Assembly: GCA_964534625.1 (NCBI GenBank)
Contig: CAZHRF010000003.1
Coordinates: forward strand, 65,486 to 129,485
Length of the DNA: 64,000 bases
Direction: 5' to 3'
Origin: an uncultured archaeon
GTDB taxonomy: Archaea; Asgardarchaeota; Heimdallarchaeia; Heimdallarchaeales; Heimdallarchaeaceae
The first letter of the stretch is position 1. Each line of letters begins with the position of its first letter. Both the position numbers and the translations under genes were made by a program. Shown here in pieces: positions 9,185 to 61,660 of the stretch. Under the pieces are notes generated by a model. That model did no database searches. It was not told the origin of the DNA and worked only from the letters and a program-made list of their open reading frames with translations.

Positions 9185-9187
9185 CAG

Positions 9188-13646: not shown

Positions 13647-14785
13647 ATTGTTGGTAAGGGGAACCTTAACAAAGCCGCTACTCCTCCTAGTTCAGATAAT
13701 TTTTCACCTGTTTCATGCATTATCGACATAAAAACGGTTTTTCCTCCTTTTTGTTTAGTCTCTTCCACTAATTCATCAATTAATGCTCGTTTTTCAACAT
13801 CCAAAACTTGTAACATATCATCAGAGATCATTAAAGTCTCCACAGCTCCCATTTCTATTGCCCTTCTCACACTATCTAAACCATAAGTAGCGTTGTCTGT
13901 TTCTTTTCCTATTCTTCTATAAAATTCTTCCAATAACTGAGTTTCAAAGACCACTCTTTGTTTTTTTGCTATTTTTTCAGGTAATTTCCTTGATAAAACC
14001 TCATGCAAGCCTACTTTTCCTCCCGTATGTGCATGGACATGTTGTATTTTTTCTAGTAAACTTGGATCCCGTTTTTTTACAAAATCGAGGAATTCTTCTG
14101 CAGTAAAACCCGGACCAGCTATAATAATAACCTCGGGTTCATATTGATCTGTGGTGTCTTTAATAATTTGATGTAACTCTTTAAAGAAATTACCTTTTGT
14201 TGTTGAATGTTGCTTTGCATCACTAAACTTACGAGTTATAGCTGAAGAAACTTCAGTAATAATTTTCACTTGAAAAGGAGTAACCAATGCTATACAAGCA
14301 GTACCCTCATCTAAGGTAATAATTAATATTTGGGAACGCATGGAATCTTCTTTAGCCTCTTCTATTATCTGTCTTTCTGAAGATTTCCATTCGTTTTTTG
14401 TCAATCTTGCTTTTTCCATAGTTGAAAGGGCAATTGTGTGATAACTACCTAAAGATATAAGATCCTCGTTTCCTGCAACAATAATTCCCTTGACACGTAA
14501 AGTATCACCAAAACCACCAAAAGCGAATTCTTCAACTTCTATTTCTAACGTCATCTTTACCCGTTCACCAGTATCAGCACGACCGAACTCATCATTTCTT
14601 CTAATTCTTCTGCTAGTTTCAGCCCTAAGAAGATCACTTGGTTTTAGAATTCGATATATAGCATAAAGATCACCCGAAGTTTCGGGAATAAATTCTATAA
14701 TTCCATGATTATAATCTAAAGTTAAAATTTTCAAAGTAATTTCACTACTATTATAATAAAAAAGATACAAATAAAAAACTTTCAT
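13643..14785 (-). CDS. pelA: mRNA surveillance protein Pelota (Dom34 homologue)
   Basis: LKILTLDYNHGIIEFIPETSGDLYAIYRIL and the eRF1-like central and C-terminal domains. The true start is probably the TTG at 14734 (LKILTLD), so the ORF's first 17 codons look like a spurious 5' extension. Confidence 0.85.
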   Translation of the reverse strand: MKVFYLYLFYYNSSEITLKILTLDYNHGIIEFIPETSGDLYAIYRILKPSDLLRAETSRRIRRNDEFGRADTGERVKMTLEIEVEEFAFGGFGDTLRVKGIIVAGNEDLISLGSYHTIALSTMEKARLTKNEWKSSERQIIEEAKEDSMRSQILIITLDEGTACIALVTPFQVKIITEVSSAITRKFSDAKQHSTTKGNFFKELHQIIKDTTDQYEPEVIIIAGPGFTAEEFLDFVKKRDPSLLEKIQHVHAHTGGKVGLHEVLSRKLPEKIAKKQRVVFETQLLEEFYRRIGKETDNATYGLDSVRRAIEMGAVETLMISDDMLQVLDVEKRALIDELVEETKQKGGKTVFMSIMHETGEKLSELGGVAALLRFPLPTI

Positions 14786-14880
14786 ATTCAGAGATTTAAT
14801 AAAGAATGCCTATATACTCATCGCATTTTCAATATAGTTTTTATATCATCATATTATGATATAAAAGTGGAGAAAATCAC

Positions 14881-15291
14881 ATGGGAAAAAAACTAGCATC
14901 GGATTATGAGAGAAGATTAGCGAATAAATTTTGGGATAATGGTTTTGCGGTTATTAGGGCGCCATCTTCTTCAGGGACATCTAGAATGCCTCGACCAGAT
15001 ATTTTTGTTGGTTCAGCAGAGAAGAATCAAATGTATGCTATTGAAATTAAAACATCGAGACAAGATACTTTCTATGTACAAAAAGATCAAATTGATGGGT
15101 TGATCCTATTTTCAAAAAGAATGGGGGCAAAATCACTCTTAGCTGTGAAGTATGTAGGGTATCAAATGAGGTATAGGTTTTTAAGAGTACCCGAAGATTT
15201 AGTTGAAAGTAGTGGTAACAGTTATCGCGTAAATATAGACTATGTAAGAGAATATGGATTAACGTTTACTAAATTAGTGTTTAAAAAATAA
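14881..15291 (+). CDS. hjc: Archaeal Holliday junction resolvase Hjc
   Basis: G-x-x-YER...GFAVIRAPSS...PDIFVG...AIEIKTS reproduces the Hjc catalytic E / PD / ExK layout. The size (136 aa) fits. Confidence 0.85.
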   Translation: MGKKLASDYERRLANKFWDNGFAVIRAPSSSGTSRMPRPDIFVGSAEKNQMYAIEIKTSRQDTFYVQKDQIDGLILFSKRMGAKSLLAVKYVGYQMRYRFLRVPEDLVESSGNSYRVNIDYVREYGLTFTKLVFKK

Positions 15292-15312: not shown

Positions 15313-15780
15313 TTGGGGGCGAATGATATCTCAAATAGTAATATTAGGGTAATGGGAAAAGAGGATTTAGATGTTGTTTATAATATCGAACGTAAAACAT
15401 TCCCTAATCCATTCAATCAGACATTAATTCGTAGTATTTTTTTTCATAATCCTCATTTATGTTTAATTATTGAAATAAATACAAAAGTAATTGGATTTGT
15501 GTTAGGTGGGAAAACATCACATACGAATCAGAATCACATACTCTCATTTGCAATATTAAAAGATTATCAAGGAAAAGGGTATGGAAGTGAACTTCTTAGA
15601 AAGTACATAGATCTCTCGAAAATGTTTGGATATGAATCAATTATATTAGAAGTACGTATAGATAATCAGCAAGCCATTAAACTATATGAAAAATTTAAGT
15701 TCAAGAAAACACACACTATCAGAAAATACTATGAAGACAAATGTGATGCATATGTATATGTATTAAACATTAGAAACTAA
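15313..15780 (+). CDS. rimI: GNAT N-acetyltransferase, RimI-like
   Basis: The acetyl-CoA motif QGKGYGSELL and the family-typical IRxM...DLxxVxxIE N-terminus, which supports the TTG start at 15313. Confidence 0.7.
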   Translation: MGANDISNSNIRVMGKEDLDVVYNIERKTFPNPFNQTLIRSIFFHNPHLCLIIEINTKVIGFVLGGKTSHTNQNHILSFAILKDYQGKGYGSELLRKYIDLSKMFGYESIILEVRIDNQQAIKLYEKFKFKKTHTIRKYYEDKCDAYVYVLNIRN

Positions 15781-15822
15781 AAACTAAATTAAACCAGGTT
15801 TTCATATTGTGTATCAAGAGTT

Positions 15823-17250
15823 TTATTCTTTCTTATTCATTATATACTCATCAATACTTTGAGCAGCTATTTTACCTGTACCCATTGCAGCGATGACAGT
15901 AGCGGCACCAGTAGCTACATCACCACCCGCAAATACTCCTTCTTTGCTAGTTTTACCCGTTTTAAGGTCGGTGACTATTGTACCCCATCTTGATACGTCT
16001 AAATCAGGTGTTGTTGAACTGATTAACGTATTAGGTTTATTCCCTATTGCGATGATTACTAAATCACATTCAATCAAATGTTCCGAACCGGGTATTGGAA
16101 TGGGTTTAGCTCTTCCCGATTCATCGGGTTCTCCCAAATCATATCGAAGACACTCTATCGCCTTTACTTTGCCCAAAGCATCTGGAATTAGTCTTACTGG
16201 GTTATTCAAAAATTTAAAGTCTATACCTTCTTCTTCTGCATGATGGATCTCATCTTGTCTTGCTGGACACTCCTTTCTGCTTCGTCTATAAACTATAATA
16301 GACTCTTCTGCCCCTAGTCTTTTTGCTGTTCTTGACGCATCCATAGCTACATTTCCTGCCCCTATGGTTACCACTTTTTTAGCTCGTTTGACAGGAGTCT
16401 GATATTCTGGAAATTTATAACCGCGCATTAAATTAACCCTTGTTAAATACTCATTAGCAGAATAAACATTTATCAAATTTATTCCTTTGATATCCAACAA
16501 ACGAGGTGCTCCTGCTCCCGAACCTATAAATACTGCATCATATTTATGTAGTAAATCATCAATTGTCTTATTTCTGCCTACAATGAAATTATTGTGGATT
16601 TCCACACCCAATTTTTTAACATAGTCTACTTCATATTTTACAATTTTTTTTGGCAATCTAAATTCAGGAATTCCATAGACTAGAACACCGCCTGATTTAT
16701 GCAATGCTTCAAATATTTCCACTTTATGGCCCATTAGTGCCAAATCACTAGCACATGTAAGACCTGCAGGACCAGCACCGACTATCGCAATTTTTTTACC
16801 AGTTGAATTAGGGATGTTTGGAATTGTTTCTCCATGTTTCCTAGCATAATCAGCAACAAAACGTTCTAGATTACCTATAGCAACAGGTTCATATCTACGA
16901 CCCATAATGCAGCGCGCCTCACATTGACTCTCTTGCGGGCATACTCGCCCTGTTATGGCAGGTAAACTGTTTTTTGTTTTAATCAATTCAGCAGCTTCCA
17001 TATATGCTCTATTTTTAATTAAAGTAATGAAGTCTCTAATAGGTACTTCAACAGGGCATCCTCTTTGACATGGGGAGTGTTTACAATTAAGACATCTAGA
17101 AGCTTCTATCAAAACTTCCTCTTCTGAGTATCCTAAAGGAACTTCTTTAAAATTATATCTTCTTTCAATTGGATCTTGCGATGGCATAGGAGTCTTTTGC
17201 TTTATGAGTGATTGCCTTTTTGTCGATTTAGGCTTATTTTCTTCATTCAT
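15823..17250 (-). CDS. nfnB: NADPH-dependent FAD/[4Fe-4S] oxidoreductase, GltD/SudA/NfnB-like large subunit
   Basis: N-terminal Cys clusters (CLNCKHSPCQRGCP and CPQESQCEARC) plus two Rossmann motifs (VGAGPAGL and IGAGNVAMD). Start moved to the ATG at 17250, which is preceded by GGTGA. The longer ORF would overlap the upstream gene. Confidence 0.8.
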   Translation of the reverse strand: MNEENKPKSTKRQSLIKQKTPMPSQDPIERRYNFKEVPLGYSEEEVLIEASRCLNCKHSPCQRGCPVEVPIRDFITLIKNRAYMEAAELIKTKNSLPAITGRVCPQESQCEARCIMGRRYEPVAIGNLERFVADYARKHGETIPNIPNSTGKKIAIVGAGPAGLTCASDLALMGHKVEIFEALHKSGGVLVYGIPEFRLPKKIVKYEVDYVKKLGVEIHNNFIVGRNKTIDDLLHKYDAVFIGSGAGAPRLLDIKGINLINVYSANEYLTRVNLMRGYKFPEYQTPVKRAKKVVTIGAGNVAMDASRTAKRLGAEESIIVYRRSRKECPARQDEIHHAEEEGIDFKFLNNPVRLIPDALGKVKAIECLRYDLGEPDESGRAKPIPIPGSEHLIECDLVIIAIGNKPNTLISSTTPDLDVSRWGTIVTDLKTGKTSKEGVFAGGDVATGAATVIAAMGTGKIAAQSIDEYIMNKKE

Positions 17251-46924: not shown

Positions 46925-48730
46925 TTAATCATATATAGAAAAGTTCTGATGATTTTTAGCTTTTTGAATTACTTCATTTGCAATTTGTTCATCTATTTTT
47001 AATAAAACCATTATTTTTTCTGGAGATGCTTCAGCTATGCTTTTAATATCCTCAAAATGCTTGAATAACATAAAACTTTTTTTCTTGCCAATACCTTTTA
47101 TTGATTCAAATATAGATTTTTTTTTCGATAATGATCTGAGGGTTTTATGATAATTAATCGCAAACCTATGAGCTTCATCTCTAACATGCTGTATCAATCT
47201 TAAAACGGGAGATCCTTTGGGAAAGTTCAATGGTTCATTAGTCCATGTTACAAAAACTTCTTCCTTCTTTTTAGCTATACTAATTACAGAAATTTCAAGT
47301 CCTAATTGTTGTAAAACACTCTTTGCACTATTTAACTGTCCTTTGCCACCATCAATTATTATCAAATCAGGCATGAGATCGTTTTTTAATCTGTCTGAAG
47401 TGTATCGTCTTCTTATTACTTGTTCCATCATTCTATAATCATCAGGATGATCATAGTTTCCTTTTATTCTAAAACGCCTATAGAAAGATTTTCTGGGTTC
47501 ACCATCCACAAAAACAACACAGCTTCCTACTGAGTGTGAACCAGCTAACGTAGATATATCAAAACCATTAATTATGGCTGGCTCTTTTTTTAACTTAAAA
47601 ATAAGCTTCATGTCCTTTCCAACAGAAATCATATCTTTTTTATAAGTAAAAAAACGGCGATACTTTCTTATTTCTTTTTTAGCATTTTTTTCAGCAACTT
47701 CTACTAAATTTTTACTATTTTCATCTTTGGGATGTATAATTGGAATACTTGTATTATCATTAAAAATCGTTAATAAATCACGCTTAACTAAAAGAAGATC
47801 AGGTAGATTGCTCTTAGCATAAATTATTGAGATAAGTTGTGATATCTTTGTGAACGAATCACTCTTTCCTGGTGGAATAATAAAAGAATTAATTTTGTTT
47901 ATTCTTTGATTTTTTATGATAATTCTACAGAAAGAAAATAAATCATCATCTTTTACATATCCTATAACATCAATATCATTATACGGCAATTTCAGATCTT
48001 TTTGAATATTTAAAGTGACTTTTACGGCACGGATAAGATCTCGCAACTTAGCTGCATGTTCAAAATTATTTTCATTTGAAGCTTGCCACATTTCTTCTTC
48101 TAAATTATCTAGTAATCGCCCAACATTTCCGCTCAGGAATTGAATAACATTATCAACAACTTGATCATATTTTTCTTTTTTAACTTTGTTTACACAAGGA
48201 GCTAAACATCGCCCGAGTTTATAACGCATGCATCTTATTCTTCTATTACTCTGGTTGATTTTGTCTACAGATATTTTACAGTTGCTTATTGGAAAAAATT
48301 TTAAGATTATTTTTACAGTATCCCTTAACATGCTGTCACTGAGATATGGACCAAAGTAGACGCTCCCACTATTCTTACTTTCTCCTTCCCTCTCGATTAA
48401 TAATCTAGGGTAGGTTTCTTCCATTGTTATTCTTATGACCAATGAGGATTTGTCATCTTTTTGCTTATAATTAAATCTTGGTTCCAGTTGTTTTATCATT
48501 TTTCTTTCTAATAGTAAAGCTTCTGTTTCATTTCTTGTTTCAACATAGTCAACTCTGTTTCCTATATTTTGTATCTTAATCTCTTTTATTTCATCAGCGA
48601 TAAAATGTTGTTTTACTCGATTTTTAAGATTTTTAGCCTTACCTATATATATTACCAAGCCTTTTTCATCTTTAATCAAGTATACACCCGGTTTTTCAGG
48701 CAGATTTTCTATGTCATCAAGAAGACTCAT
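46925..48730 (-). CDS. uvrC: Excinuclease ABC subunit C
   Basis: N-terminal GIY-YIG (GVYLIKDEKGLVIYIGKAKNLKNRV), a UvrBC-interaction region, an RNase H-like endonuclease domain and a C-terminal (HhH)2. Confidence 0.9.
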   Translation of the reverse strand: MSLLDDIENLPEKPGVYLIKDEKGLVIYIGKAKNLKNRVKQHFIADEIKEIKIQNIGNRVDYVETRNETEALLLERKMIKQLEPRFNYKQKDDKSSLVIRITMEETYPRLLIEREGESKNSGSVYFGPYLSDSMLRDTVKIILKFFPISNCKISVDKINQSNRRIRCMRYKLGRCLAPCVNKVKKEKYDQVVDNVIQFLSGNVGRLLDNLEEEMWQASNENNFEHAAKLRDLIRAVKVTLNIQKDLKLPYNDIDVIGYVKDDDLFSFCRIIIKNQRINKINSFIIPPGKSDSFTKISQLISIIYAKSNLPDLLLVKRDLLTIFNDNTSIPIIHPKDENSKNLVEVAEKNAKKEIRKYRRFFTYKKDMISVGKDMKLIFKLKKEPAIINGFDISTLAGSHSVGSCVVFVDGEPRKSFYRRFRIKGNYDHPDDYRMMEQVIRRRYTSDRLKNDLMPDLIIIDGGKGQLNSAKSVLQQLGLEISVISIAKKKEEVFVTWTNEPLNFPKGSPVLRLIQHVRDEAHRFAINYHKTLRSLSKKKSIFESIKGIGKKKSFMLFKHFEDIKSIAEASPEKIMVLLKIDEQIANEVIQKAKNHQNFSIYD

Positions 48731-48734
48731 ATTT

Positions 48735-50741
48735 TTATCTCACAAGCATTTTCTCTAATTCACGTATTTTATCACGAAATACTGCTGCTTTTTCAAAATT
48801 CAACTCACCAGCAGCTTCTGCCATTCTTTCTTTTAGATCATCAATCATAAATGAGATGTCTTGAATTGTTATATCAGGGGGTAAAGACAAATCATCAGGT
48901 TTTTTCTCTCTTGCTGTTACATCCATTAAAGTTTCTACAATTGATCTTACTTCAGTTCGTACTGTCTGTGGTTCAATGTTATTTTTTCTGTTGAAATCCA
49001 ATTGTATTTGTCTCCGTCTATTATTTTCTGAAATAGCTTCTTTCATAGCTTCTGTTAACTCTGAAGCATAAAGTATGACACTCCCATGTACATTTCTACT
49101 TGCACGGCCCATTAACTGAATTAAGGAACGTTTTGATCGGAGGAACCCTTGTTTATCTGCATCGAGAATAGCCACCAAACTCACTTCAGGTAAATCAAGT
49201 CCCTCCCTGAGCAGATTAATTCCAACAACCACGTCATGTTTCCCTAATCTTAAATCACGTAAGATATCAATCCGATCAAGTGTATCTACTTCATGATGAA
49301 GATATATGGATTTTACTCCCATATCGATTAAGTAATCAGATAATTCCTCTGCCATTTTTTTAGATAAGGTAGTAACAAGAGACCGTTCTCCCTTTTTAGA
49401 ACGCATGTTTATCTCACTTAACAAATTGTCTATTTGTCCCTCTATCCCCCTAATTTCTATTTTGGGATCTACTAAACCAGTGGGCCTGTTTATTTGTTCT
49501 ACAATTGCATCTGAATGTTCCCGTTCATAAGATCCAGGAGTTGCACTTGTAAAAATTACGGTGTTCATGTATAATTCAAATTCATCAAAACGCAAAGGTC
49601 TATTATCAATAGCAGAGGGTAAACGAAAACCAAAGTCTACCAAATTCTTCTTTCGCGCATAATCTCCACGATGCATTCCCCTTAGCTGTGGTATAGTGAG
49701 ATGAGATTCATCAATAACTAATAGAAAATCAGAAGGAAAATGATCAAGAAGAGTAAATGGTGGATCACCAGCTACTCTATGATCAAAATGTCTAGAGTAA
49801 TTTTCCATACCAGGACAATAACGAACTTCTTTCAACAATTCTAGATCATATAAAGTACGTTGTCTTAAACGATGTGCTTCAATGTTTTTTCCTGCTTTCT
49901 TTAAGCTATATAATCTTTCGTTAAGTTCATTTTCAATTGAATCTATAGCTTCATCAAATAAATTGTCATTAGTTAAATAATGAATACCCGGATAAATATC
50001 CAAACTATTGAATTCACGGATCATTTCATTAGTAATGGGATGACGAGCAGTAATACGGTCTATTTCATCTCCAAAAAATTCGATACGATATATATTTGAT
50101 CCATACAAAGGATAAATATCAATTGTATCACCTCTTACCCTAAATGACCTTCGTTCAAGAACAGTGTCGTTTCTATTATATTGATTTAAGACTAGTTGCA
50201 TTAACAAATCTTGTCTATCTAAAGTGCTCCCCGTTTGAAGATATATTCTTTTATTTCTGTAAAGATTAGGATCACCAACACTATAAATGCATGAGACAGT
50301 TGCACAAACGATTACATCATCTCTAGTTGCCAACGCCTCAGTTGTAGAATGCCTAAGGCGGTCTATTTCTTCATTGATGCTAAAATCTTTTTCAATATAC
50401 AAGTCTTTAGCAGGGAGATATGATTCTGGTTGATAGTAATCATAAAAACTTACAAAATACTCTACTCTAGCTGATGGAAACAGTGATTTGAATTCGCCAT
50501 AAAGTTGTGCTACCAAAGTTTTGTTTGGCCCTACTACTAAAGTTGGTTTCTTAACTTTATCAATTACTTGTGCTATTGTGTACGTTTTTCCGCTTCCTGT
50601 AACACCTAGTAATGTTTGTTTCTTGTAATCCTGTGCTGTTATTCCTTCAACAAGTTTCCGAATCGCCTTAGGTTGATCTCCTTTTGGTTCTAAATTTGTT
50701 TGTATAGTTAATGGCATTCTTATTCCACGTACTTTGGTCAT
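48735..50741 (-). CDS. uvrB: Excinuclease ABC subunit B
   Basis: GDQPKAI, Walker A GVTGSGKT, DESH box, helicase motifs and the C-terminal UVR domain (FEKAAVFRDKIRELE). The start is possibly the internal ATG at 50717. Confidence 0.9.
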   Translation of the reverse strand: MTKVRGIRMPLTIQTNLEPKGDQPKAIRKLVEGITAQDYKKQTLLGVTGSGKTYTIAQVIDKVKKPTLVVGPNKTLVAQLYGEFKSLFPSARVEYFVSFYDYYQPESYLPAKDLYIEKDFSINEEIDRLRHSTTEALATRDDVIVCATVSCIYSVGDPNLYRNKRIYLQTGSTLDRQDLLMQLVLNQYNRNDTVLERRSFRVRGDTIDIYPLYGSNIYRIEFFGDEIDRITARHPITNEMIREFNSLDIYPGIHYLTNDNLFDEAIDSIENELNERLYSLKKAGKNIEAHRLRQRTLYDLELLKEVRYCPGMENYSRHFDHRVAGDPPFTLLDHFPSDFLLVIDESHLTIPQLRGMHRGDYARKKNLVDFGFRLPSAIDNRPLRFDEFELYMNTVIFTSATPGSYEREHSDAIVEQINRPTGLVDPKIEIRGIEGQIDNLLSEINMRSKKGERSLVTTLSKKMAEELSDYLIDMGVKSIYLHHEVDTLDRIDILRDLRLGKHDVVVGINLLREGLDLPEVSLVAILDADKQGFLRSKRSLIQLMGRASRNVHGSVILYASELTEAMKEAISENNRRRQIQLDFNRKNNIEPQTVRTEVRSIVETLMDVTAREKKPDDLSLPPDITIQDISFMIDDLKERMAEAAGELNFEKAAVFRDKIRELEKMLVR

Positions 50742-50829: not shown

Positions 50830-51591
50830 TTAATTCTTAGAAACAGGGAAGTAAACAGGAAATATAAGGTTACTGAAGTTATTATACATTTCGGGTCTAT
50901 ATGACGCTTCTTCTAGTAAAACTTCTAACTTGATTATCTCAAATTCCGTATAACCTTTCATTTTTGGAAAGTTAGCTGGATTGCCATGGTCTAATATTTT
51001 TTTTATGATTTCACCAAGTTCTGTTAGCTCAACATAAGACTCAAATAACAGATGAATATGAGTGGTTAAGCCATCTAATTGCTTCTCTTCTTCAACAGAG
51101 TTAGATATCCTCACTACAGAAAGAATAGCTGCACGCCTAGTAATGTAATCTTTTGCGTAAACTACTTTACTAAGGGAAGAAAGTACATCTACATCATCAA
51201 GAAACCCTATCGCCCTAATTGCTGCATATTGTAAATCATATCCACTTCCTTCTAAAACACTCAAAAAATAAGGTTTTGATGAGTAGGCTTTTAATTTGCC
51301 TAAGATCTCTAAAACAGCTATTTTTACTCCAAGTGAACTTTCTTGTAAAATATCATGAAGATTATCTAAAACATCATTTTTAACTTTCGGTGTTCTTTTC
51401 ACTAAATCAATTATAGTCTGAGCACCAGCATTTCTCACATTCCAATTACTATCCTTAAGTAGTGAATATAAGATCCATAAGTCATTTTCGGATCCATTAT
51501 TTTTTAGAAATAATGCTACTTTTATTCTAGCTAAAGGATCATCATTCTTTCTCTTTGGTAATACAAACAATCTTTTTATGAAACTAAACAA
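50830..51591 (-). CDS. HEAT-repeat protein (PBS-lyase-type repeats)
   Basis: Repeated xxVRxxAAxxLGxL-like units (NWNVRNAGAQTIIDL, LGVKIAVLEILGKL, LQYAAIRAIGFL, YITRRAAILSVVRI). Last gene of the cassette, overlapping the upstream gene by 8 nt. Confidence 0.7.
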   Translation of the reverse strand: MFSFIKRLFVLPKRKNDDPLARIKVALFLKNNGSENDLWILYSLLKDSNWNVRNAGAQTIIDLVKRTPKVKNDVLDNLHDILQESSLGVKIAVLEILGKLKAYSSKPYFLSVLEGSGYDLQYAAIRAIGFLDDVDVLSSLSKVVYAKDYITRRAAILSVVRISNSVEEEKQLDGLTTHIHLLFESYVELTELGEIIKKILDHGNPANFPKMKGYTEFEIIKLEVLLEEASYRPEMYNNFSNLIFPVYFPVSKN

Positions 51592-53137
51592 AGTACATCC
51601 CCTCTTTAATCAGATATTTAATTGCCCTTCTTTGTGGTTGACTTAGATCATTCAAATACGTATAATCTATTCGATTAACATCTACTTTCTCTTCTTTTTC
51701 TTCATCCAACTCAAAATCGTAAGCATCTCTCCTTTTTGACACATGTACAGCTCTTGTAATCACAGGTAGATTATAAGGAGACAAAGGTTCTTTCCCTTTC
51801 TTATGTACTGCAAATAGACTAGCAATATGTAAACCAGTTATTTTTCTAAAAAGAACAATATCAGCGAATGCAGGTAATATTGTACGAAAATCATCACGAT
51901 AGAGACTAGAGTGATTGTGGAGGATAACTAGTTGATCTAATCCCACACCATGTTCATCTATTTCAAACACATGAACTTTTTTCTCGTCAACCCTTACATA
52001 ACCTTTAAAACTTATTTTGGGTTTATAATCATGTAATTGCCCAAAAGTTGAGAATTTACGTCGATATGTGGTTTTTGCATAATCTTCTAGCTCTCTCCAT
52101 TTATATGCATATACGGACCAAACATCTGTCCAATTAGTTCTTGAAGTATGCCATTCTTCAATTACAGACTCGGAATGTTTATTATTTTCTGTTGCTAGTA
52201 TATTTTTTATAACATCATAGGAGAATTCTTCAAGAAGTTCTAAATCGGTCTTATAATTGAATAATTTCTTGAATAATATTTTTTCAGTTTCTACTTGTTT
52301 TAATAAACGTTGTATAAGAGCATAACTTAAAATGCCAACAGGAGGCGCCATAAGCGGTTTAAGCCCTTTTGGATATTTTTTAAATTCATAATCATCAAGT
52401 ATGGTTGTCAAAAATTTGTTTTTGATGTAATGAGCAAAACCCTCTTCTATCAGAATATGATTGTGTTTCTTTCGCGCGATTTTTGCTCTTTCTTTGAGAA
52501 GATTTATTGCTTCAATAGAAAAGTTATTGAACAGAGTAATATCTCGAGCTTCATCTGGGGGAATATAAAAATCATCTATGCCACTTTCTGTGAATAAACG
52601 TATTATACCTATTAAATCTTGAAAATATTGCCATGCCCATAAATATCCTCTATTACTTATTTTGTTCATTTTGTAAACATTATTGGACATCAATTCTTTT
52701 AATATAACATCAATTTGATACAATCTCGACATTATTTTAACTGAATTTGATTCAGTTTTTTCATTCATATACGCATGAGCAAGTGCATGAACCAACTCTG
52801 TTCTTAATATAAACTCTTTTTCTTTATTTAGCTCTCGGTAAGGTACTGTAAGATATATAATAGTAGGTAATGAGTTAAAAATTGTTTTTTTATCTGTAGG
52901 AAGAAAATCTTGCAATCTTGCTGATCTAAGATGATTTACTTCTTCTGCAGTTAAAATTGCTTGAGGCGTTCCTGCGCTATCTATTATCCGATTGACAGAA
53001 ACTTGTATATCAGGGTTATTAAAAATCAAGATACGATATTCTTCAGGGCACTCACCAAGAATAGTGTATATGTCTTTTCGCGCTTGTTGATGTACGGTTT
53101 CTATTTGTCCTAGTTCTATGCTCATCAATCTATTCAT
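51584..53137 (-). CDS. Unknown 517-aa protein of the AAA+/vWA cassette
   Basis: Intact ORF translationally coupled on both sides by 8-nt overlaps. No family recognised. His-rich patches (HALAHAY, ILHNHSS) do not fit zincin or JAMM spacing. Confidence 0.6.
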   Translation of the reverse strand: MNRLMSIELGQIETVHQQARKDIYTILGECPEEYRILIFNNPDIQVSVNRIIDSAGTPQAILTAEEVNHLRSARLQDFLPTDKKTIFNSLPTIIYLTVPYRELNKEKEFILRTELVHALAHAYMNEKTESNSVKIMSRLYQIDVILKELMSNNVYKMNKISNRGYLWAWQYFQDLIGIIRLFTESGIDDFYIPPDEARDITLFNNFSIEAINLLKERAKIARKKHNHILIEEGFAHYIKNKFLTTILDDYEFKKYPKGLKPLMAPPVGILSYALIQRLLKQVETEKILFKKLFNYKTDLELLEEFSYDVIKNILATENNKHSESVIEEWHTSRTNWTDVWSVYAYKWRELEDYAKTTYRRKFSTFGQLHDYKPKISFKGYVRVDEKKVHVFEIDEHGVGLDQLVILHNHSSLYRDDFRTILPAFADIVLFRKITGLHIASLFAVHKKGKEPLSPYNLPVITRAVHVSKRRDAYDFELDEEKEEKVDVNRIDYTYLNDLSQPQRRAIKYLIKEGMYFV

Positions 53138-54572
53138 CTCCCGTTATACTTTGTTTCAAGATTTGTACTCCCAAGGATTTTATCTCTGCTGGATCCACTA
53201 ATATAGGATCTGTTATTCCTTTTAACATTTGCTTAGTCTGGATGTAAATCTCTTTTTTCTTTAGTGACTTTGGCCCCATCAAGAAATATCCAATATTCCA
53301 GTTTCTGGTTTTGTCATTTATCAAAGAACTAAATAAAGCATTTAACTGTATCATACATTCAATAGTCTCTGGTTTTGTTTTAGTATCAATCCTAGAAAAA
53401 TATTTTTTTAAGGTTCTATTTGTCTTGTATTCAAATGGAAATATAGGTACATTTGGCATACCATCAGTAAGTATTGTTAATTGTACATCTATATTTTTGT
53501 ATTTATATTGTTCTTTTGCGTGTGCAATTGCTTCTTTAACAGCTTGAATCATATATGTTTTTCCTTTAGCGTCTGCACTAAGGAGAAAATCTTCCATTTT
53601 CTGATGATTGTCTATAACTTTAGGGGTTTGTCTTATTGGCACAACAGCCAGTTTAAACATGTCATGTTTTTTACGTTTTCTTCTGTTTTGGAGTTTAAAA
53701 TAATAGTAGAGAGCTAAAGAGGTGAGTAATGCTCCATCCAACCGGCTCATTCCACCTTCAAAAACCGTTTTTCGCATGCTTTGACTTAAATCCACAATAA
53801 AGTAGACTAATGCAGTTCTATCTTTTTTTACTCTAATAATATCTTCTTGTTTAACACTGGTAGGTGGTATCTTCTGTGAAGCGAGTACTGCACTTTTATA
53901 AGTCTCCCGCATTTTGATTAAACCACGTGGTCTTTTTTGTTTTTCATCAATTGGGGATATAGAGATTTGTTTTACTAGATGATGACCAAGAATGTTACCT
54001 AAAACATCCATTACGCTCTCTCTTGAAAGTCTCTTCTTTCGACCATATGCATCTGTTATTTCTAAATCTGCTATATCTGTTAAATCTTGTAATTTTTCAG
54101 CTAACCCATGAAGGTCAAAGTTGCCCTCATATTTGACTGATTTCAATAGTTCTTGAATATATTTCAATATATCCTCAATCGTTTGCAGTTCGTTTCTATT
54201 AACTTTTTCAAGAACTTCCGGTAAAACGCGTTCCCCAACAAACCGCAACAACCTTAGTTCATTAACTAATCTCTTTTCTTCTTCAGCAGATAAAGGAGTT
54301 GTGACTATTTTTTCTATTATATTATCTATTGCTACAGCATTTTTTGATGCCATAGAAAGTACAGCCCCTTCTCTTGAACTACGACCGAGATGAGGATTTC
54401 TCCATAATCTCAAAAGTTGTGCTGCATTTTCAAAGTCCAATATGAATTCAGCTTCCCCATAATTTTGTAGAGGGTCTCTGAAATCTGATTCTGTCATATA
54501 GTGAAGTCTTTTATCCATTTTAATCATCACTCTCCCAAGAGAGTTTATTTGAAGATTGTTAGATATATTCAA
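53130..54572 (-). CDS. von Willebrand factor A (vWA) domain protein with an intact MIDAS
   Basis: The C-terminal half has VYFIVDLSQSM (DxSxS), GKTYM (Thr) and TILTDGMPN (Asp), the full MIDAS set. The ~250-aa helical N-terminal region is of unknown type. Confidence 0.75.
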   Translation of the reverse strand: MNISNNLQINSLGRVMIKMDKRLHYMTESDFRDPLQNYGEAEFILDFENAAQLLRLWRNPHLGRSSREGAVLSMASKNAVAIDNIIEKIVTTPLSAEEEKRLVNELRLLRFVGERVLPEVLEKVNRNELQTIEDILKYIQELLKSVKYEGNFDLHGLAEKLQDLTDIADLEITDAYGRKKRLSRESVMDVLGNILGHHLVKQISISPIDEKQKRPRGLIKMRETYKSAVLASQKIPPTSVKQEDIIRVKKDRTALVYFIVDLSQSMRKTVFEGGMSRLDGALLTSLALYYYFKLQNRRKRKKHDMFKLAVVPIRQTPKVIDNHQKMEDFLLSADAKGKTYMIQAVKEAIAHAKEQYKYKNIDVQLTILTDGMPNVPIFPFEYKTNRTLKKYFSRIDTKTKPETIECMIQLNALFSSLINDKTRNWNIGYFLMGPKSLKKKEIYIQTKQMLKGITDPILVDPAEIKSLGVQILKQSITGDE

Positions 54573-56106
54573 CCCTTAAGATATTCTCGTACGAGTCCTT
54601 TAGTTTTGCAATAATCGCATCCACCACACCTTCTTCTGCTTTTTCAAGGTTCTCATATTGTTTTATTAACTCCGCTAATTCTTCATCACTTAAAGCTTTC
54701 ATTTTTGAGATATCTTCAGATATATCTTTTACATTCACTGCCACATCTGAATCTTTTATATTTGCACGTAATCTTATTTTGATTTCTTGAATAGCATCAT
54801 TTACCATAGAAGAAGGTATATCATAAGCATCCATTGTTTTTCTCACACGTTCAAGTGTTACTACATTAATGTCATCCTCACTATCAAGTTTTTGTAAAAT
54901 GATAGTTTCTCCAAGAATGTTATTTAAGGTTCTTAGATCTAGATGAGGATTTCTCTGCGGGTCGTGTATTTCGTCCAATCCCGAATAAAAATCACTTCTA
55001 GCCACACGGCTTTCGGATCTTAAAGTTTTTGTCTTCAAAGTCTCAGGTAATGAGATGTTACTCAGGAATGCCAAAAATTCAGCAGCTAATCTACTAACAT
55101 AATCTGTTGTTTCCCGCTCTAACTGATGGAGTTGAATAATTGAAGGATTGGCAGTTATTTTTCGTTGTGATAAAATGATTTGCTCGTTAAACATATCTTT
55201 AACAATTTGTACGCGACTATCCAAAGCACGGGCAGGCCACAATACTTCGGGGATACGATTAATGATGGGCTGACTTTCTTCTCCAAATACAGTTAATGGT
55301 GCGTTTGAAGTAAATATAACAGCACCATCGACATAAACAGGTTCACCTTGTATATTATATTTGATACCCATGGGATCTTCAAGAAAACCCATCAAGGCCT
55401 CTAATACGGATAACGGAAGACGTTGTATTTCGTTTACAACAAGAAAACCTCGCGATAAAACACCCACTTTATGAGATGTTGCAGCATAAGTTGTCTTTGT
55501 TTCTTTCCCGAATAATTCTTCTAAGTTTTCTACACCAGCTAAAAGCATGTAAAGGCTTTCAGGGTCCGTCCTAGGATCTAATTGGGCGCGTCTTACAATT
55601 GTTTTTTCTACTTCAAGATCATTCAAACGTGAAATTAAATCGTTTGGGGATATTTTTAGTACACTATTTGTATTATCCAATTGAACAACTCCGTTAGTAG
55701 AGAGTGTTTTTTCAATATTGCTTCTACAGAAAGGACAAAGTGATTGTAAAACTTTAATGGCACCAAAAGTGTTAGTTTGAATCTTTGAAAGAACATCAAT
55801 TATATAACCAGAATCTTCTAAAAATGGACAACCTGCGATATGATACTTATGATTGTTAGTTTCCGTAACAATATGATCTAACAATACTCGGGCAAAAAGC
55901 GTTTTTGCTTCTCCTGTTGGACCTGTGATGAGTACTTTTCCACCCACAGCCAGTTTATCCATAACTAAATTTTTTGCTTTTTCATTACCTCTAACAGAAA
56001 CATCATTCAATACGCGTTTTCTGAAATCAGCATTCATCAAAATAGAACGTACAGAATATCCTTTATAACCTTCATTTATTAAATCTTTAATTGTGGGCAT
56101 ATTCAT
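54559..56106 (-). CDS. AAA+ ATPase, MoxR/ChlI (helix-2-insert) clade, with atypical motifs
   Basis: Walker A-like GPTGEAKT (compare RavA GPPGIAKS). The Walker B region FLVVNEIQRLPLSVLEALMGFLED parallels MoxR LLADEINRAPxKxQSALLEAMQE but has N in place of D. A ~150-aa insert with H-x3-C...C-x2-C sits between the two motifs, reminiscent of the GCPF...CxxC inserts of ChlI homologues. Confidence 0.7.
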   Translation of the reverse strand: MNMPTIKDLINEGYKGYSVRSILMNADFRKRVLNDVSVRGNEKAKNLVMDKLAVGGKVLITGPTGEAKTLFARVLLDHIVTETNNHKYHIAGCPFLEDSGYIIDVLSKIQTNTFGAIKVLQSLCPFCRSNIEKTLSTNGVVQLDNTNSVLKISPNDLISRLNDLEVEKTIVRRAQLDPRTDPESLYMLLAGVENLEELFGKETKTTYAATSHKVGVLSRGFLVVNEIQRLPLSVLEALMGFLEDPMGIKYNIQGEPVYVDGAVIFTSNAPLTVFGEESQPIINRIPEVLWPARALDSRVQIVKDMFNEQIILSQRKITANPSIIQLHQLERETTDYVSRLAAEFLAFLSNISLPETLKTKTLRSESRVARSDFYSGLDEIHDPQRNPHLDLRTLNNILGETIILQKLDSEDDINVVTLERVRKTMDAYDIPSSMVNDAIQEIKIRLRANIKDSDVAVNVKDISEDISKMKALSDEELAELIKQYENLEKAEEGVVDAIIAKLKDSYENILRVEYI

Positions 56107-56151
56107 GACCTCGTTGTTTTTATATTTTTATATTTAAGTTATTCAACCTAT

Positions 56152-56757
56152 TTAATTATTATCTTCATCATCAATAATTAAATCTACTTTTCTTGGACCA
56201 AGTGATTCAATTAATTCTTCTTTAATTTCCCAAGATTTAAGGTAACCCATTCGTATGACTTTTTTTAACCAATTCAATACGGTTAGTAAATTGTTAGAAT
56301 CCTGAGTTTCTCCTGTTTCAAACAGTTCCCAGAGATGATCACTAAGGCGTATCAATGACAGATTTTCTATAAGTTCAGCTCGGGATAAAGATCCTTGTAT
56401 ATGTGAGTTATATGCACAGATAGCAATTGGTAACGATTTAGTGCTTTCATTCCAACATATTTTTTCCCAAAAGAAGTTCCGTTCATGTTTAATCATTTCT
56501 TCTTTAGTAGCATCAATAAAGTAAAGAATACCTTCAAAAGGTAAGAAATGATTAGAATGAAATGAGAAAGTTTCTGGGGCTGGTAATTCAACTAAAGAAT
56601 CATCAAGAATATATGTGTCAAGATCAGCGTGTGCTTTTAGTACTAGAGTTCGGTTACGGGTAGCAGAATTATCATCACCAAGAATAAGTATAGAAACTTC
56701 AGGATAACCTAATTTACGCTTAATGGTTTTGATGAAAGATTGAACTGCGTTAGTCAT
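56152..56757 (-). CDS. Arf/Arl-like small-GTPase-fold protein lacking all nucleotide-binding motifs (predicted pseudo-GTPase)
   Basis: Collinear with human ARF1, aligned by hand from memory.
- ILILGDDNSATRNRTLV aligns with ILMVGLDAAGKTTILY.
- GILYFIDATKEE aligns with GLIFVVDSNDRE.
- PIAICAYNSHIQGSLSRAELIENLSL aligns with [25 protein letters not shown].
- WELFETGETQDSNNLLTVLNWL aligns with [21 protein letters not shown].
G1, G3, G4 and G5 are all substituted. Confidence 0.6.
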   Translation of the reverse strand: MTNAVQSFIKTIKRKLGYPEVSILILGDDNSATRNRTLVLKAHADLDTYILDDSLVELPAPETFSFHSNHFLPFEGILYFIDATKEEMIKHERNFFWEKICWNESTKSLPIAICAYNSHIQGSLSRAELIENLSLIRLSDHLWELFETGETQDSNNLLTVLNWLKKVIRMGYLKSWEIKEELIESLGPRKVDLIIDDEDNN

Positions 56758-56907
56758 TGGGTTTCGTCAAAAATGAAGAATAATTGACCTTTAATAATGT
56801 TATGTATTGTTAGAATTCAAAAAGAAAAGGGAGAGAGCTATAGCGAAAAAGGTTAAATTAAAATAATATAGAAAAAAAGAGAAAAAAACAAAAGGAGAAA
56901 GAGGAAA

Positions 56908-57600: not shown

Positions 57601-57710
57601 GGGGTGGTGATCTAGCTCGGCTATGATATCTCCTTGACGAAAATCATAGGTGCGACCTATAGTTTTCAGAATGGAGAAGGTCGCAAGTTCAAATCTTGCT
57701 CACCCCACCA
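57601..57710 (+). tRNA. tRNA-Val (anticodon GAC) with a 32-nt intron at 37/38, 3' CCA encoded
   Basis: Hand fold. Acceptor GGGGUGG/UCACCCC, anticodon stem UCUCC/GGAGA, loop UUGACG then an intron (about 57640-57671, containing the hairpin AUAGGU-GCG-ACCUAU), T arm GCAAG-UUCAAAU-CUUGC, discriminator A, then CCA. Confidence 0.85.
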
Positions 57711-58280: not shown

Positions 58281-58808
58281 ATGTCAAAAAAACCTCAGTA
58301 TCTCAAGAAGATAGTTATGCTTGGGGATGGTGGTGTTGGTAAAACCTCTTTAGTGAAGCGTTTTAAGACCGGTCAATTCAATCCAGCTTATCTTATTACT
58401 TTAGGGGCTTCCATTACAAAAAAAGAAATTGATTTTGATCATTGTTTGGTAACACTAGCAATTTGGGATATTGGAGGTCAAGAGATGTTCCAAAAAGTTC
58501 ATTCCAAATATTTTATTGGATCTGAAGGCGCTTTAGCTGTTTGTGATGTTACTGATTTTACTTCTTTTCAGAATTTATCCAATTGGATAAAATCATTTCG
58601 TAAAGTAGTCGGAGATAAACCAGTTATATTTTTAGCAAACAAAATTGACTTAAAGGATCAGAAAGTTACAGAACACGATATTTCTGCTTTAAGTGCAAAG
58701 TTCTCTAATTCCCAGTTTATATTAACATCAGCTAGAAATGGTACAAATACAAATGAGGCATTTTCTAATATTGCAAGATTAATACTTGATAGCTCAAATA
58801 CAAAATGA
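58281..58808 (+). CDS. Ras-superfamily small GTPase, Rab/Ras-like
   Basis: All G motifs are intact: G1 GDGGVGKTS, switch I TLGASI, G3 WDIGGQE, G4 NKIDL, G5 TSARNG. No C-terminal prenylation Cys. Start set at the ATG at 58281 (MSKKPQYLKKIVMLG); the track ORF from 58002 is a spurious 5' extension. Confidence 0.85.
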   Translation: MSKKPQYLKKIVMLGDGGVGKTSLVKRFKTGQFNPAYLITLGASITKKEIDFDHCLVTLAIWDIGGQEMFQKVHSKYFIGSEGALAVCDVTDFTSFQNLSNWIKSFRKVVGDKPVIFLANKIDLKDQKVTEHDISALSAKFSNSQFILTSARNGTNTNEAFSNIARLILDSSNTK

Positions 58809-58990
58809 AAATCTTATAGTCTAGTACTTCTGAATTAAAATATTCAAGATTTCTCTCCATTTAAAACGAATTTTAACCCCCCTATCACAGAAATCACAAA
58901 AGTAGAACACTGCTTTGGAAGTACTATAATCATTTTTATCTTATCTTTAAATACAATATCTTTAATATATTCCCTCTTGTGTTATTTTTT

Positions 58991-60445
58991 ATGAATGATT
59001 CTTCACAATTCAGACAAAGACTCAATTCAAGTATTAGCAAAGTTTATGCGGGTGAGATAGAAAAAGGCTTTAATGAGCTTAAAAACCTATTTGAAACTGC
59101 TTTATCGGAAGAAAACAATCATCAAGCATCACTCATTGCTTTATCTATTGGTACTCTCAAAAGTAACTATGAAGAGCATGAAGAAGCCATAAAATACTTG
59201 AATTTAGCCCTATCACATGCCAAAAAAACAGACGACAAGCAACTAATTTTAAGATGTCTTACTAATCTCGCAAACTTTGTAATACAATTTGATGTAAAAA
59301 TAGCAGCAGAAGTCTACAATGAAGCCCGTTCTATTTCTAGAAAACTTTCTGATAAGAAACAATATGCTATTAATACAGTTCAATACGCAAATTGTCTTCC
59401 ATTAAAAAACACCGATAAAATCCTTTCTTTATATAAAGAAGGCAAAGAATATTTTGAAACCACTAATAATAAGAAATGGTTGGGAACTATTAATTTTAAA
59501 ATTGGAATGGTTTTGCATCATTTGTCTAAATATGGTGAAGCTAAAGAATACTTACTTAAAAGCAAAGACATTCTCCAAAGTTTTCCTGAAATATATAAAA
59601 ATTTGAGAATACAAGAGGTATTAAAAGAAAATCAATTTTTTATGTATAGTGGCAAGGCAAAAGACTATTTTTTAGACTTTCCTCAACGAGAAAAATTGTC
59701 TAATAGTCCTGGAAATCAAGAAATTATTAAAAAATTAATACGCCTTTCTTCTTTTGATAGTAAAAAGCAACTTTCCAAAATGAATATTTCCAATATCTCA
59801 AACATGAATCAACAAGAGATCTATAACATTGTGAGTAAAGCAAGCGAAATACCTTTAGAACCCACGGATGTTAAAGAGAAAGCCGCTCTTACTCTAGAAG
59901 TAGCTGAGGATTTGCTTGAGAAAGGAGATAGGCTCAATGCATATTTTCTTATTGTTGATGCCACTGCTTTCTTTGTGCAAGCTCAAGAAAAAAGAAAGGC
60001 AAAAAAAGCATTAAAAAAACTCCGAAAAATTGCCAAAAAACACCATAAGAGGGAAGAATTAGAGTTATACGCATTAGATTTTTTCGGTTCGTTTGCTGTT
60101 AAAGAGAACCCAAAAAAAACGTTAGAATTTGCTAAAGAAGCCAAGGATCTTGCAAACCAAATAGGCAATAAATACTATGAAGCAAAAGCATTGTTAGCAA
60201 TTGCAGAGGCTCAAGCCCAATTAAACGTGGATAAATCTTTAGGATACTATGAACAAGCTATTTCTTCTTTTGCTATGTTAGAAGATCAATATAACATGCT
60301 AAGAACTTTAGTAAAATATGGTAAGAACCTTCTCTCTAATGATAAAAATAAGGGAAAGGTGATTCTCAAACGAGCAAAGGGTCTTGCAGAAGAAATGCAA
60401 GACATAGAGGTGATCAAGAATATCGATAACAGTCTTAGTAAATGA
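58991..60445 (+). CDS. TPR-repeat protein
   Basis: Multiple 34-aa-like repeats with the A/Y/L pattern (EEAIKYLNLALSHAKK, YGEAKEYLLKSKDIL, YYEAKALLAIAEAQAQL, LGYYEQAISSFAML). The ATG at 58991 is preferred over the GTG at 58979. Confidence 0.7.
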   Translation: MNDSSQFRQRLNSSISKVYAGEIEKGFNELKNLFETALSEENNHQASLIALSIGTLKSNYEEHEEAIKYLNLALSHAKKTDDKQLILRCLTNLANFVIQFDVKIAAEVYNEARSISRKLSDKKQYAINTVQYANCLPLKNTDKILSLYKEGKEYFETTNNKKWLGTINFKIGMVLHHLSKYGEAKEYLLKSKDILQSFPEIYKNLRIQEVLKENQFFMYSGKAKDYFLDFPQREKLSNSPGNQEIIKKLIRLSSFDSKKQLSKMNISNISNMNQQEIYNIVSKASEIPLEPTDVKEKAALTLEVAEDLLEKGDRLNAYFLIVDATAFFVQAQEKRKAKKALKKLRKIAKKHHKREELELYALDFFGSFAVKENPKKTLEFAKEAKDLANQIGNKYYEAKALLAIAEAQAQLNVDKSLGYYEQAISSFAMLEDQYNMLRTLVKYGKNLLSNDKNKGKVILKRAKGLAEEMQDIEVIKNIDNSLSK

Positions 60446-61559: not shown

Positions 61560-61660
61560 TGGCGCCGCCCGCAGGACTTGAACCTGCGACCTTACGGTTT
61601 CTGCATACAATGAAAAATGGTTTTAACAGCCGTATGCTCTACCGACTAAGCTAGGGCGGC
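61560..61660 (-). tRNA. tRNA-Asn (anticodon GUU) with a 25-nt intron at 37/38, 3' CCA encoded
   Basis: Hand fold of the minus strand. Acceptor GCCGCCC/GGGCGGC, D arm GCUU-AGUCGGUA-GAGC, anticodon stem UACGG/CCGUA, loop CUGUUA then the intron, T arm GCAGG-UUCAAGU-CCUGC, discriminator G, then CCA. Confidence 0.85.

Follow-up and report, generated by a model that had tools for sequence, protein, structure and literature searches.

The window analysed here is a stretch of 64,000 nucleotides (nt) from contig CAZHRF010000003.1 of an uncultured archaeon, with a GC content of ~32%, and at positions 50830 to 56757 it carries a cassette of five consecutive open reading frames (ORFs), all on the minus strand. 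In the direction of transcription, these encode an Arf-fold pseudo-GTPase of 201 amino acids (aa) (G1, 56152..56757), a PrkA-related AAA+ ATPase of 515 aa (G2, 54559..56106), a von Willebrand factor A (vWA) protein of 465 aa with a metal ion-dependent adhesion site (MIDAS) (G3, 53130..54527), a protein of 513-517 aa without a family (G4, 51584..53137) and a HEAT-repeat protein of 253 aa (G5, 50830..51591). The ORF list and the sequence reproduced the coordinates of a preliminary description of this DNA, which had reported five co-oriented, tightly packed genes in a probable Asgard genome. The genome is indeed of Heimdallarchaeaceae type, since the closest relatives of the window proteins are labelled Heimdallarchaeaceae or Heimdallarchaeota metagenome-assembled genomes. 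Heimdallarchaeia have conserved the cassette as one operon, and G2, G3 and G4 are probably a very divergent, unannotated sister of the PrkA/YeaG, YeaH/YhbH and SpoVR/YcgB module, to which accessory subunits have been added.

The junctions between the genes are tight. G1 and G2 are separated by a gap of 45 nt, and overlaps of 8 nt are present in the sequence between G3 and G4 (53130-53137) and between G4 and G5 (51584-51591), all three as previously described. The start of G5 is a TTG that lies over the G4 stop and has GAGGGG ahead of it. In the NCBI model of an identical G4, the start is placed at the second ATG (53125), which leaves a 4-nt gap after G3 instead of the overlap. The G3/G4 overlap has its positional equivalent in most related loci, the G4/G5 overlap is 4 or 8 nt in homologous loci, and overlaps of 4-8 nt at both junctions were observed in most related loci. 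The 14-nt overlap between G2 and G3 (54559-54572) given in the preliminary description requires a TTG start at 54572 (longest ORF 53130-54572, 480 aa) and is probably an artefact of choosing the longest ORF. Because all G3 homologues begin with 'MPHR...', the deposited identical protein has 465 aa, and an ATG at 54527 behind GGGAG fits a protein of that length, the true G2/G3 junction is probably a gap of 31 nt; in other loci this gap is ~4-50 nt. Upstream of G1, an AT-rich intergenic region (56758..56907) is shared with a NUDIX gene that is divergently adjacent in all Heimdallarchaeaceae loci, and this region is the probable promoter of the cassette. A scan with sigma-70 promoter and terminator models found fewer sites than in shuffled sequence, the sigma-70 model being unsuited to an archaeon, and nothing above chance was found for repeats or structured RNA within the cassette.

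The conservation of the cassette was examined by a scan with a G4 alignment, one genome per species, which gave 37 loci, all in Heimdallarchaeota, and further loci were fetched by protein identity. The same gene order was observed in 40 or more Heimdallarchaeia loci of different species, so the genes are co-conserved, as expected if the five form one unit, and the five-gene arrangement is far beyond chance. In ~28 Heimdallarchaeaceae loci, the divergent NUDIX gene is followed by G1, G2, G3, G4 and G5 and mostly then by the genes for UvrB and UvrC. In a more distant tier (G4 33-35% identical) the flanks are different, yet G2, G3, G4 and G5 stay together in the same order; G1 was found there only in L031 and L045, and unrelated proteins occupy its position elsewhere. 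The Kariarchaeaceae-like loci, L065 and L057 likewise have the core but no G1. In L065, G2 lies in divergent orientation beside a G3-like protein (E = 3e-63), a G4-like protein (E = 2e-34) and a membrane-anchored helical protein. In L057 (57% GC), three proteins in a row of 510, 456 and 505 aa match the G2 (E = 2.5e-23), G3 (E = 2.7e-24) and G4 (E = 3.2e-8) profiles, and no Arf or HEAT partner accompanies them. G3 lies directly after G2 in every G3-bearing locus except L065, where the neighbours are divergent; G4 always comes after G3, G5 follows G4 in nearly all loci, and L003 holds G4 and G5 only. Since G2, G3, G4 and a helical-repeat partner persist while the flanks and G1 vary, these four are the selected unit and G1 is a lineage-specific addition.

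G2 is an AAA+ protein. In its AlphaFold2 model (pLDDT 80.5, pTM 0.82), the AAA+ core is interrupted between Walker A and Walker B by an insert of ~120 aa that carries cysteines, and the C-terminal region is helical; the closest structural neighbours found with Foldseek were HslU and MCM, at TM-scores of only 0.14-0.26. Walker A (GPTGEAKT, residues 62-69, 55900..55923) is invariant or nearly so in 44 sequences. In Walker B (VVNE, residues 223-226, 55429..55440), where Asn replaces Asp, V224, N225 and E226 are invariant and V223 is at least 90% conserved; the sensor-1 residue N268 and the arginines R284, R293 and R298 are likewise invariant or at least 90% conserved. The insert contains a Cys cluster, C93...C124-x2-C127 ('GCPFLED'...'LCPFC', 55726..55830), which is invariant in alignment A2 and at least 90% conserved in the 44-sequence alignment A4, and which is a possible Zn site. 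In the window copy, only weak Pfam matches to Sigma54_activat, AAA_5 (15.4 bits against a cut-off of 22) and Mg_chelatase were found, the last at 14.7 bits against a cut-off of 20.3 and over residues 37-83 only, that is, the P-loop; across the family, AAA_5 is matched by 42 of the 44 members and Sigma54_activat by 40.

For the comparison with the bacterial module, reference alignments were built for PrkA, DUF444 and SpoVR, the profiles of which are shallow (effective number of sequences, Neff, ~2-3). Under hhalign, G2 matched PrkA at a probability of 95.8% (E = 6.8e-9, 258 columns), and at 96.4% (E = 1.4e-9, 425 columns) with enriched profiles. With the AAA+ cores alone, the match was 96.9% (E = 1.5e-10), with z = 20 against column-shuffled profiles, a null that keeps composition and ignores relatedness and that was used for all z values here. 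The two families have the motifs '[YF]xIxGCPxxE[DE]' and 'LCPxC' in common (in PrkA 'GCPMHEEPL' and 'LCPWC'), the Cys cluster of G2 being common to the Firmicutes/Chloroflexi type of PrkA, and at the aligned position both have a Walker B without Asp (VVNE in G2, EFVE in PrkA). Among the controls, ClpX, HslU, YifB, Lon and RavA matched the G2 profile over 27-76 columns round the P-loop only, and NtrC matched 121 columns at a probability of only 46%. In the reciprocal comparison, the PrkA profile scored G2 at 93%, above all E. coli controls. The AAA+ proteins of L057 and L065 match both the G2 and the PrkA profiles (L057 against PrkA, E = 4.8e-8), and L057 thereby serves as a bridging lineage in favour of the relationship.

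When 1.84 billion representative proteins (1.84e9) were searched exhaustively with the G2 profile in HMMER, 20 proteins in total were returned at E <= 1e-3, almost all from the family of G2 itself. Outside the family, P0214 is a full-length distant homologue (E = 6.5e-15) and an intermediate, with a weak AAA_PrkA match of its own (E = 0.0015), and P0220 matches part of the profile. The sole annotated outsider, P0221, is a genuine PrkA (Pfam AAA_PrkA 6e-20, PrkA C-domain 2e-31), and its match to the G2 profile spans Walker A and the Cys-bearing insert. In word-indexed searches with G2, G3 and G4, every protein recovered was from Heimdallarchaeia, the matches broke off sharply and no outgroup appeared, and sequence searches of the PDB with the same three, as single proteins and as profiles, gave one weak vWA match only. 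Homology of the AAA+ core of G2 to that of PrkA is thus well supported.

G2 also recalls the unfoldases of HslU/ClpX type, and the I-domain of HslU, like the insert of G2, is a large domain between Walker A and Walker B. HslU is the best Foldseek neighbour of G2 and has a comparable insert, two beta-strands that directly precede the sensor-1 strand in the G2 model are read as, and consistent with, a pre-sensor-1 hairpin, and ClpX matches the P-loop region at 94% probability. The low TM-scores set G2 apart from these unfoldases, as do the sequence match of 42-61 columns and the lack of a partner peptidase in the cassette.

G3 consists of a helical N-domain of ~230 aa followed by a C-terminal vWA domain, the MIDAS of which is intact: D246-x-S248-x-S250 (53778..53792) with T324 and D355 downstream, all in invariant alignment columns; the fold and motifs of both proteins thus bear out the description of an AAA+ next to a vWA(MIDAS) protein. 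VWA_2 falls below the Pfam cut-off in the window copy and is found in 10 of 12 members, VWA_CoxE in 2 of the 12, and no AAA+ match was found for the N-domain in Pfam, either in the window copy or in the 12 members. The G3 profile matched the vWA domain of TRAP in the PDB. Against DUF444, the family of YeaH/YhbH, hhalign gave E = 1e-4 to 4e-4 (z = 8.3), with the signal in the vWA core, and DUF444 proteins also have their vWA domain in the C-terminal half. G3 matched YhbH at a probability of 48% over 220 columns vs 1.4% for ViaA.

In the preliminary description, the AAA+ protein had been called MoxR/ChlI-type, and a MoxR-type chaperone pair is the first alternative to be weighed: G2 and G3 would mature a client whose gene lies elsewhere, or insert a metal cofactor into it, and the HEAT protein would assist in the manner of a lyase or chaperone. 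The layout of an AAA+ beside a MIDAS vWA protein, with its logic of ATPase and adaptor, is that of RavA/ViaA, CbbQ/CbbO, NorQ/NorD and CoxD/CoxE. The intact MIDAS of G3, the AAA_5 (MoxR/dynein-type) and Sigma54_activat matches across the G2 family, the weak VWA_CoxE signal, the labels 'MoxR-like ATPase' and 'Mg-chelatase' given to homologues by the Joint Genome Institute (JGI), and weak matches of G5 to the phycobilin-lyase-type HEAT proteins NblB and CpcE are all in keeping with such a pair. G2 nevertheless falls outside the MoxR proteins: no MoxR, ChlI, CbbQ or sigma-54 protein was found at E <= 1e-3 in the exhaustive search, RavA matches at a probability of 28.5% over 27 columns vs 96% over 207-425 columns for PrkA, and a large Cys insert, like a Walker B that lacks Asp, is a PrkA trait. 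ViaA is the poorest vWA match, and the flanks of the cassette vary by lineage, with no conserved client gene beside it. For a ChlI/BchI type in particular, the Mg_chelatase match is below threshold and confined to the P-loop, the N-domain of G3 is not AAA+, and the flanks of the related loci hold no conserved large gene resembling CobN/BchH. The MoxR/ChlI assignment was not upheld, and a MoxR-type pair is judged an unlikely explanation.

Three parts are predicted for G4: a helical N-domain that carries SpoVR-like motifs, a C-domain rich in beta-structure, and a terminal helix. G4 was said at the outset to belong to no recognisable family, and no match was found in Pfam, NCBIfam, PADLOC or by sequence in the PDB, nor in Pfam for 15 members. 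The AlphaFold2 model is moderately confident (pLDDT 67, poor over residues 37-89), and against the PDB, Foldseek gave a best E of 0.4, so no fold was assigned. With default hhalign, G4 and SpoVR gave nothing, and no match to PF04293 was found in Pfam among the 15 members; full-length enriched profiles under greedy alignment gave a score of 28.7 (z = 2.6). The N-domains compared on their own gave a score of 25.8 (E = 0.0097, z = 4.2), which 0 of 100 shuffles reached, at a probability of 4%, and they have in colinear order the motifs GTP/GMP, NSxP..YL, HxxxH and EG[FW]A. This similarity of the G4 N-domain to that of SpoVR is suggestive, not conclusive. The HxxxH motif of G4 ('HALAH', 52775..52789) aligns with 'AHxxxGH' of SpoVR; it is conserved in Heimdallarchaeaceae and L057 and lost in the Kariarchaeaceae-like tier, P0024 and L065. 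Because of these losses, it is not a universal catalytic site. The possibility that HxxxH and EGFAHY mark an active zincin-like metalloprotease was rejected, as the catalytic Glu is absent and both His are lost in several lineages; judged by these residues, G4 is probably not a metalloenzyme.

In bacteria and some archaea, PrkA/YeaG travels with YeaH/YhbH, a vWA protein of the DUF444 family, and with SpoVR/YcgB. In annotated records from seven bacteria, the order is PrkA, YhbH/YeaH, SpoVR, and YhbH and SpoVR overlap by 4-8 nt in 4 of the 7; in E. coli, yeaG and yeaH are together and ycgB is elsewhere. The cassette has the same order of AAA+, vWA protein and protein of ~500 aa and the same style of overlap at the second junction. 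The sizes are also similar, with 379-441 aa for YhbH/YeaH vs 461-465 aa for G3 and 411-542 aa for SpoVR vs 513-517 aa for G4, PrkA (599-649 aa) being longer than G2. The order of the genes speaks against the idea that the pair has no characterised relatives. In bacteria, the three proteins work jointly in responses to starvation and stress and in sporulation; the trio shows tight cofitness (r > 0.7 in six bacteria) and is regarded as one pathway (10.1101/072470). The ATPase of PrkA is required for sporulation and osmotic-stress tolerance; kinase and protease activities ascribed to it are disputed, and the latest study finds neither (PMC9512850, PMC13001217).

Several results weigh against placing the cassette beside this module. 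None of the three core proteins passes the models of the bacterial module, and Pfam and NCBIfam find no AAA_PrkA, PrkA_C, DUF444 or SpoVR in any cassette protein; AAA_PrkA (PF08298) was not found in the window G2 at E <= 1, nor among the 25 commonest of the 40 families matched by the 44 members. E. coli YeaG reached only 3.5% against the G2 profile. Residues 295-515 of G2 were tried as the C-terminal 'kinase-like' domain of PrkA (PF06798) and rejected (hhalign 15.5, z = 0.2, no Pfam match), so that domain is missing in G2. Likewise, the N-domain of G3 was rejected as a counterpart of the DUF444 N-region (z = 1.6), with no match to PF04285 in the 12 members, and since the N-domains show no similarity, the link between G3 and YhbH comes from generic vWA similarity and gene context. 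Compared at full length, G4 and SpoVR score little higher than the cross-controls, with an hhalign probability of 3-4%, and the C-domains gave nothing when compared, so that the SpoVR C-domain, like the DUF444 N-region, is unrelated to its counterpart in the cassette. The bacterial module has no equivalent of the coupled G1 and G5, and the Hodarchaeota-type loci L042 and L043, and also L044, carry G2 without G3-G5. Transfer of function from PrkA is weak as well, because the biochemistry of PrkA is itself disputed. Even so, the link between G2 and PrkA, the order, sizes and junction style of the genes, the preference of G3 for YhbH and the similarity of the N-domains of G4 and SpoVR together make homology of the triad to PrkA-YhbH-SpoVR rather likely, in which case G3 would correspond to YeaH and G4 to SpoVR.

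G1 sets the cassette apart from the bacterial module. Pfam Arf matched residues 68-167 at 26.5 bits (cut-off 22.3) over profile positions 76-173, which is the C-terminal half only, and by sequence the best PDB matches were ARL3/Arf structures (best E = 4e-6). Nine family members were aligned with reference sequences of ARF1 and ARL3, in which the placement of the motifs agrees with the alignment to ARL3 from the PDB. In all nine, the P-loop GK[ST], DxxGQ, NKxD and SA motifs are lost and the interswitch is shortened. The five nucleotide-binding motifs (G1-G5 in GTPase numbering: GxxxxGK[ST], the switch-I Thr, DxxGQ, NKxD and SA[KLT]) are all absent or substituted. The protein keeps two Arf-typical tryptophans; its N-terminal helix is amphipathic and basic, and its C-terminal tail is acidic. 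The earlier report of a small-GTPase fold with every GTP-binding motif erased thus holds across the whole family, and because all nucleotide-binding motifs are lost family-wide, G1 is classed on its sequence as a conserved pseudo-GTPase. The Arf-type C-terminal half, the two tryptophans and the N-terminal amphipathic helix are features in common with Asgard ArfR and the Arf family (bioRxiv 10.1101/2024.02.28.582541; PDB 8ouk/8oul), from which G1 differs in the loss of the five motifs and the shortened interswitch. No G1-type protein is described in the Asgard Arf papers checked, and a literature search for pseudoGTPases in Asgard archaea gave nothing relevant.

The Heimdallarchaeaceae orthologues of G1 end in acidic residues (IDDEDNN, EEENDLDV; in the window 56152-56220, minus strand) and the L031/L045 versions end in basic ones; that the acidic tail could serve as a ligand for a MIDAS site is pure speculation. 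G1 is restricted to Heimdallarchaeaceae and the L031/L045 clade. In distant lineages, the proteins encoded upstream of G2 were tried as divergent versions of G1, and none matched the G1 profile; they include a 193-aa Cys-rich protein with CxxC pairs, a ParB_N protein, a hydrophobic protein that by inspection is probably a membrane protein, and PadR/winged helix-turn-helix-like proteins. Among the last is a conserved protein of 192 aa with weak PadR/winged-helix matches that precedes G2 in L042 (9365-9943, plus strand) and L043 (5835-6413, plus strand).

G5 matched HEAT_2 in four stretches (E = 4e-20) and HEAT (E = 3.7e-5) in Pfam, in agreement with its description as an alpha-solenoid. The presence of an Arf fold and a solenoid in one cassette had invited a comparison with eukaryotic coats and midasin, according to which an Arf-fold protein would recruit a coat-like HEAT solenoid, or the AAA+ and MIDAS proteins would act like midasin, in proto-eukaryotic trafficking or remodelling. 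The Arf fold and basic amphipathic N-terminus of G1, faint Adaptin_N matches in G5, a host from the Heimdallarchaea, which rank with the archaea most closely related to eukaryotes, a Roadblock/LC7 gene after the cassette in L045 with a homologous ORF in L031, and a membrane-anchored protein at the solenoid position of L065 would fit such a role. G1 is predicted to be unable to bind GTP, however, so it would provide no recruitment switch, and it is missing from many lineages that keep the core, the triad of L057 having neither Arf nor HEAT protein. The Adaptin_N matches are far below the cut-off, G2, in contrast to midasin, has only one AAA+ module and is related to PrkA, and no membrane or coat component is conserved nearby. 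The comparison was not borne out, and a trafficking role is the least probable of the explanations weighed here.

The possibility of an anti-virus or conflict system of the 'ternary' vWA and AAA+ type, with the accessory genes as sensors or effectors, was also considered. AAA+/vWA pairs with variable third components are known conflict systems (PMC7159879), and the accessory genes of the cassette do differ between lineages. The matches to TRIP13 (E = 0.0024, 15 bits) and to WGR_XIII/HEAT-ARM_XIII (12-16 bits) in PADLOC are weak and insignificant (E >= 6e-4), and the defence reading was set aside for want of a significant PADLOC match; no effector domain, such as a nuclease, protease, TIR or pore-former, was detected with Pfam. 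In all Heimdallarchaeaceae, the cassette is syntenic and flanked by the housekeeping genes for NUDIX and UvrBC, and the two complete Heimdallarchaeum chromosomes (L024, L037) yielded only one locus each, unlike a variable defence island. A conflict system is therefore regarded as very unlikely.

Several observations concern the genes around the cassette. In the window, G5 is followed immediately, on its own strand, by genes for bacterial-type UvrB (668 aa) and UvrC (601 aa) (46925-50741, minus strand). This adjacency is found in most Heimdallarchaeaceae loci; because it is inverted and upstream in L022/L023 and lost in distant lineages, UvrB and UvrC reflect synteny and stand outside the unit. 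In L001, from Ca. Heimdallarchaeum endolithica, a Cas12f1-like TnpB gene lies between the HEAT gene and uvrB (13494-14945, plus strand) and looks like a mobile-element insertion that breaks the usual synteny. On the other side of the window cassette, ~1.5 kb upstream and on the opposite strand, there is a canonical Ras/Roc-type small GTPase gene (Pfam Ras, E = 5e-40; 58305-58808, plus strand), the product of which contrasts with the degenerate Arf-like G1, followed by the gene of a 488-aa TPR protein (58979-60445, plus strand). Rfam matched tRNAs at 57601-57707 (plus strand) and 61563-61660 (minus strand) that ARAGORN did not report, and their lengths of 107 and 98 nt suggest intron-containing archaeal tRNAs.

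In other loci, different neighbours were observed. In L045, the Roadblock/LC7 protein after the HEAT gene (15507-15908, plus strand) scores 26.1 bits, above the cut-off, and ~1 kb upstream of the Arf-like gene there is a gene for an actin-like ALP/MreB-like protein (7344-8405, plus strand). L031 has a 136-aa ORF at the position equivalent to the Roadblock/LC7 gene (12495-12905, plus strand), with an N-terminus nearly identical to that of the L045 protein, and an ORF upstream of its Arf-like gene that resembles the L045 actin-like gene by position and N-terminal sequence. A protein of ~245-258 aa adjoins the cassette on either side in three loci of the distant tier, L036 (6218-6949, plus strand), L035 (12266-13042, minus strand) and L040 (12294-13037, minus strand); the L036 copy matches ParB_N (E = 2.7e-6), and the other two are alike by N-terminal sequence. 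In L057, the triad lies amid four helical paralogues of 237, 730, 509 and 324 aa without a Pfam family (101-814 and 5354-10043, plus strand), of which the last three have a common C-terminal tail, 'RRFY(G)'. These were tried as equivalents of G5 and rejected, since they show no similarity to G5 and are paralogues of one another. In L065, the protein at the HEAT position is helical with hydrophobic N-terminal segments and probably membrane-spanning (3894-5069, minus strand), and a small, very hydrophobic, probably membrane protein is encoded after G2 (9593-10108, plus strand); these neighbours hint that the system is membrane-associated in some lineages.

For the PrkA-related triad and its accessory proteins, the following mechanism is proposed. 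G2, with its intact Walker A, catalytic Glu, sensor 1 and conserved arginines, would form an ATP-driven AAA+ assembly. G3 would act as the adaptor, its MIDAS metal site gripping an acidic residue of a partner or substrate, and G4 would be the obligatory third subunit of the complex. G5, translationally coupled to G4, would serve as a docking scaffold, and in Heimdallarchaeaceae G1 would be a constitutive nucleotide-free adaptor and no switch. The output would be regulatory remodelling of one or more target proteins and not the coating of membranes. A bolder proposal, which we hold only tentatively and consider rather unlikely, is that the PrkA-like core recruited a nucleotide-free Arf-fold protein and a HEAT solenoid as stoichiometric subunits, so that the Arf fold was exapted as a structural adaptor before eukaryotes arose. 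In this proposal, membrane tethering of the machine is conceivable, either by the amphipathic helix at the N-terminus of G1 or by solenoid variants with a membrane anchor, as in L065.

No described system has this five-part composition in the literature searched, as the preliminary description had supposed, and no account of the cassette, or of PrkA or SpoVR linked to Asgard archaea, was found there. What is new is a PrkA-like core that current family models miss, without the PrkA C-domain and with two extra subunits. The PrkA-YeaH-SpoVR trio, the biochemistry of which is debated, occurs widely and shows strong genetic coupling. In the divergent branch, the AAA+ core together with the Cys insert, a catalytic Glu in a Walker B that has no Asp, the MIDAS and the SpoVR-like N-terminal motifs would be retained, while the C-terminal 'kinase' domain of PrkA, the DUF444 N-region and the C-domain of SpoVR would be dispensable, and this division yields concrete hypotheses on the minimal machine. 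If the recruitment of G1 and G5 is true, archaea would provide a precedent for the attachment of an adaptor with a GTPase fold and a scaffolding solenoid to an AAA+/MIDAS remodeller. Four or five 'hypothetical' proteins of Heimdallarchaeia gain a context, and an operon-encoded Arf-fold pseudo-GTPase subunit is a caution against equating every Asgard Arf-like gene with trafficking.

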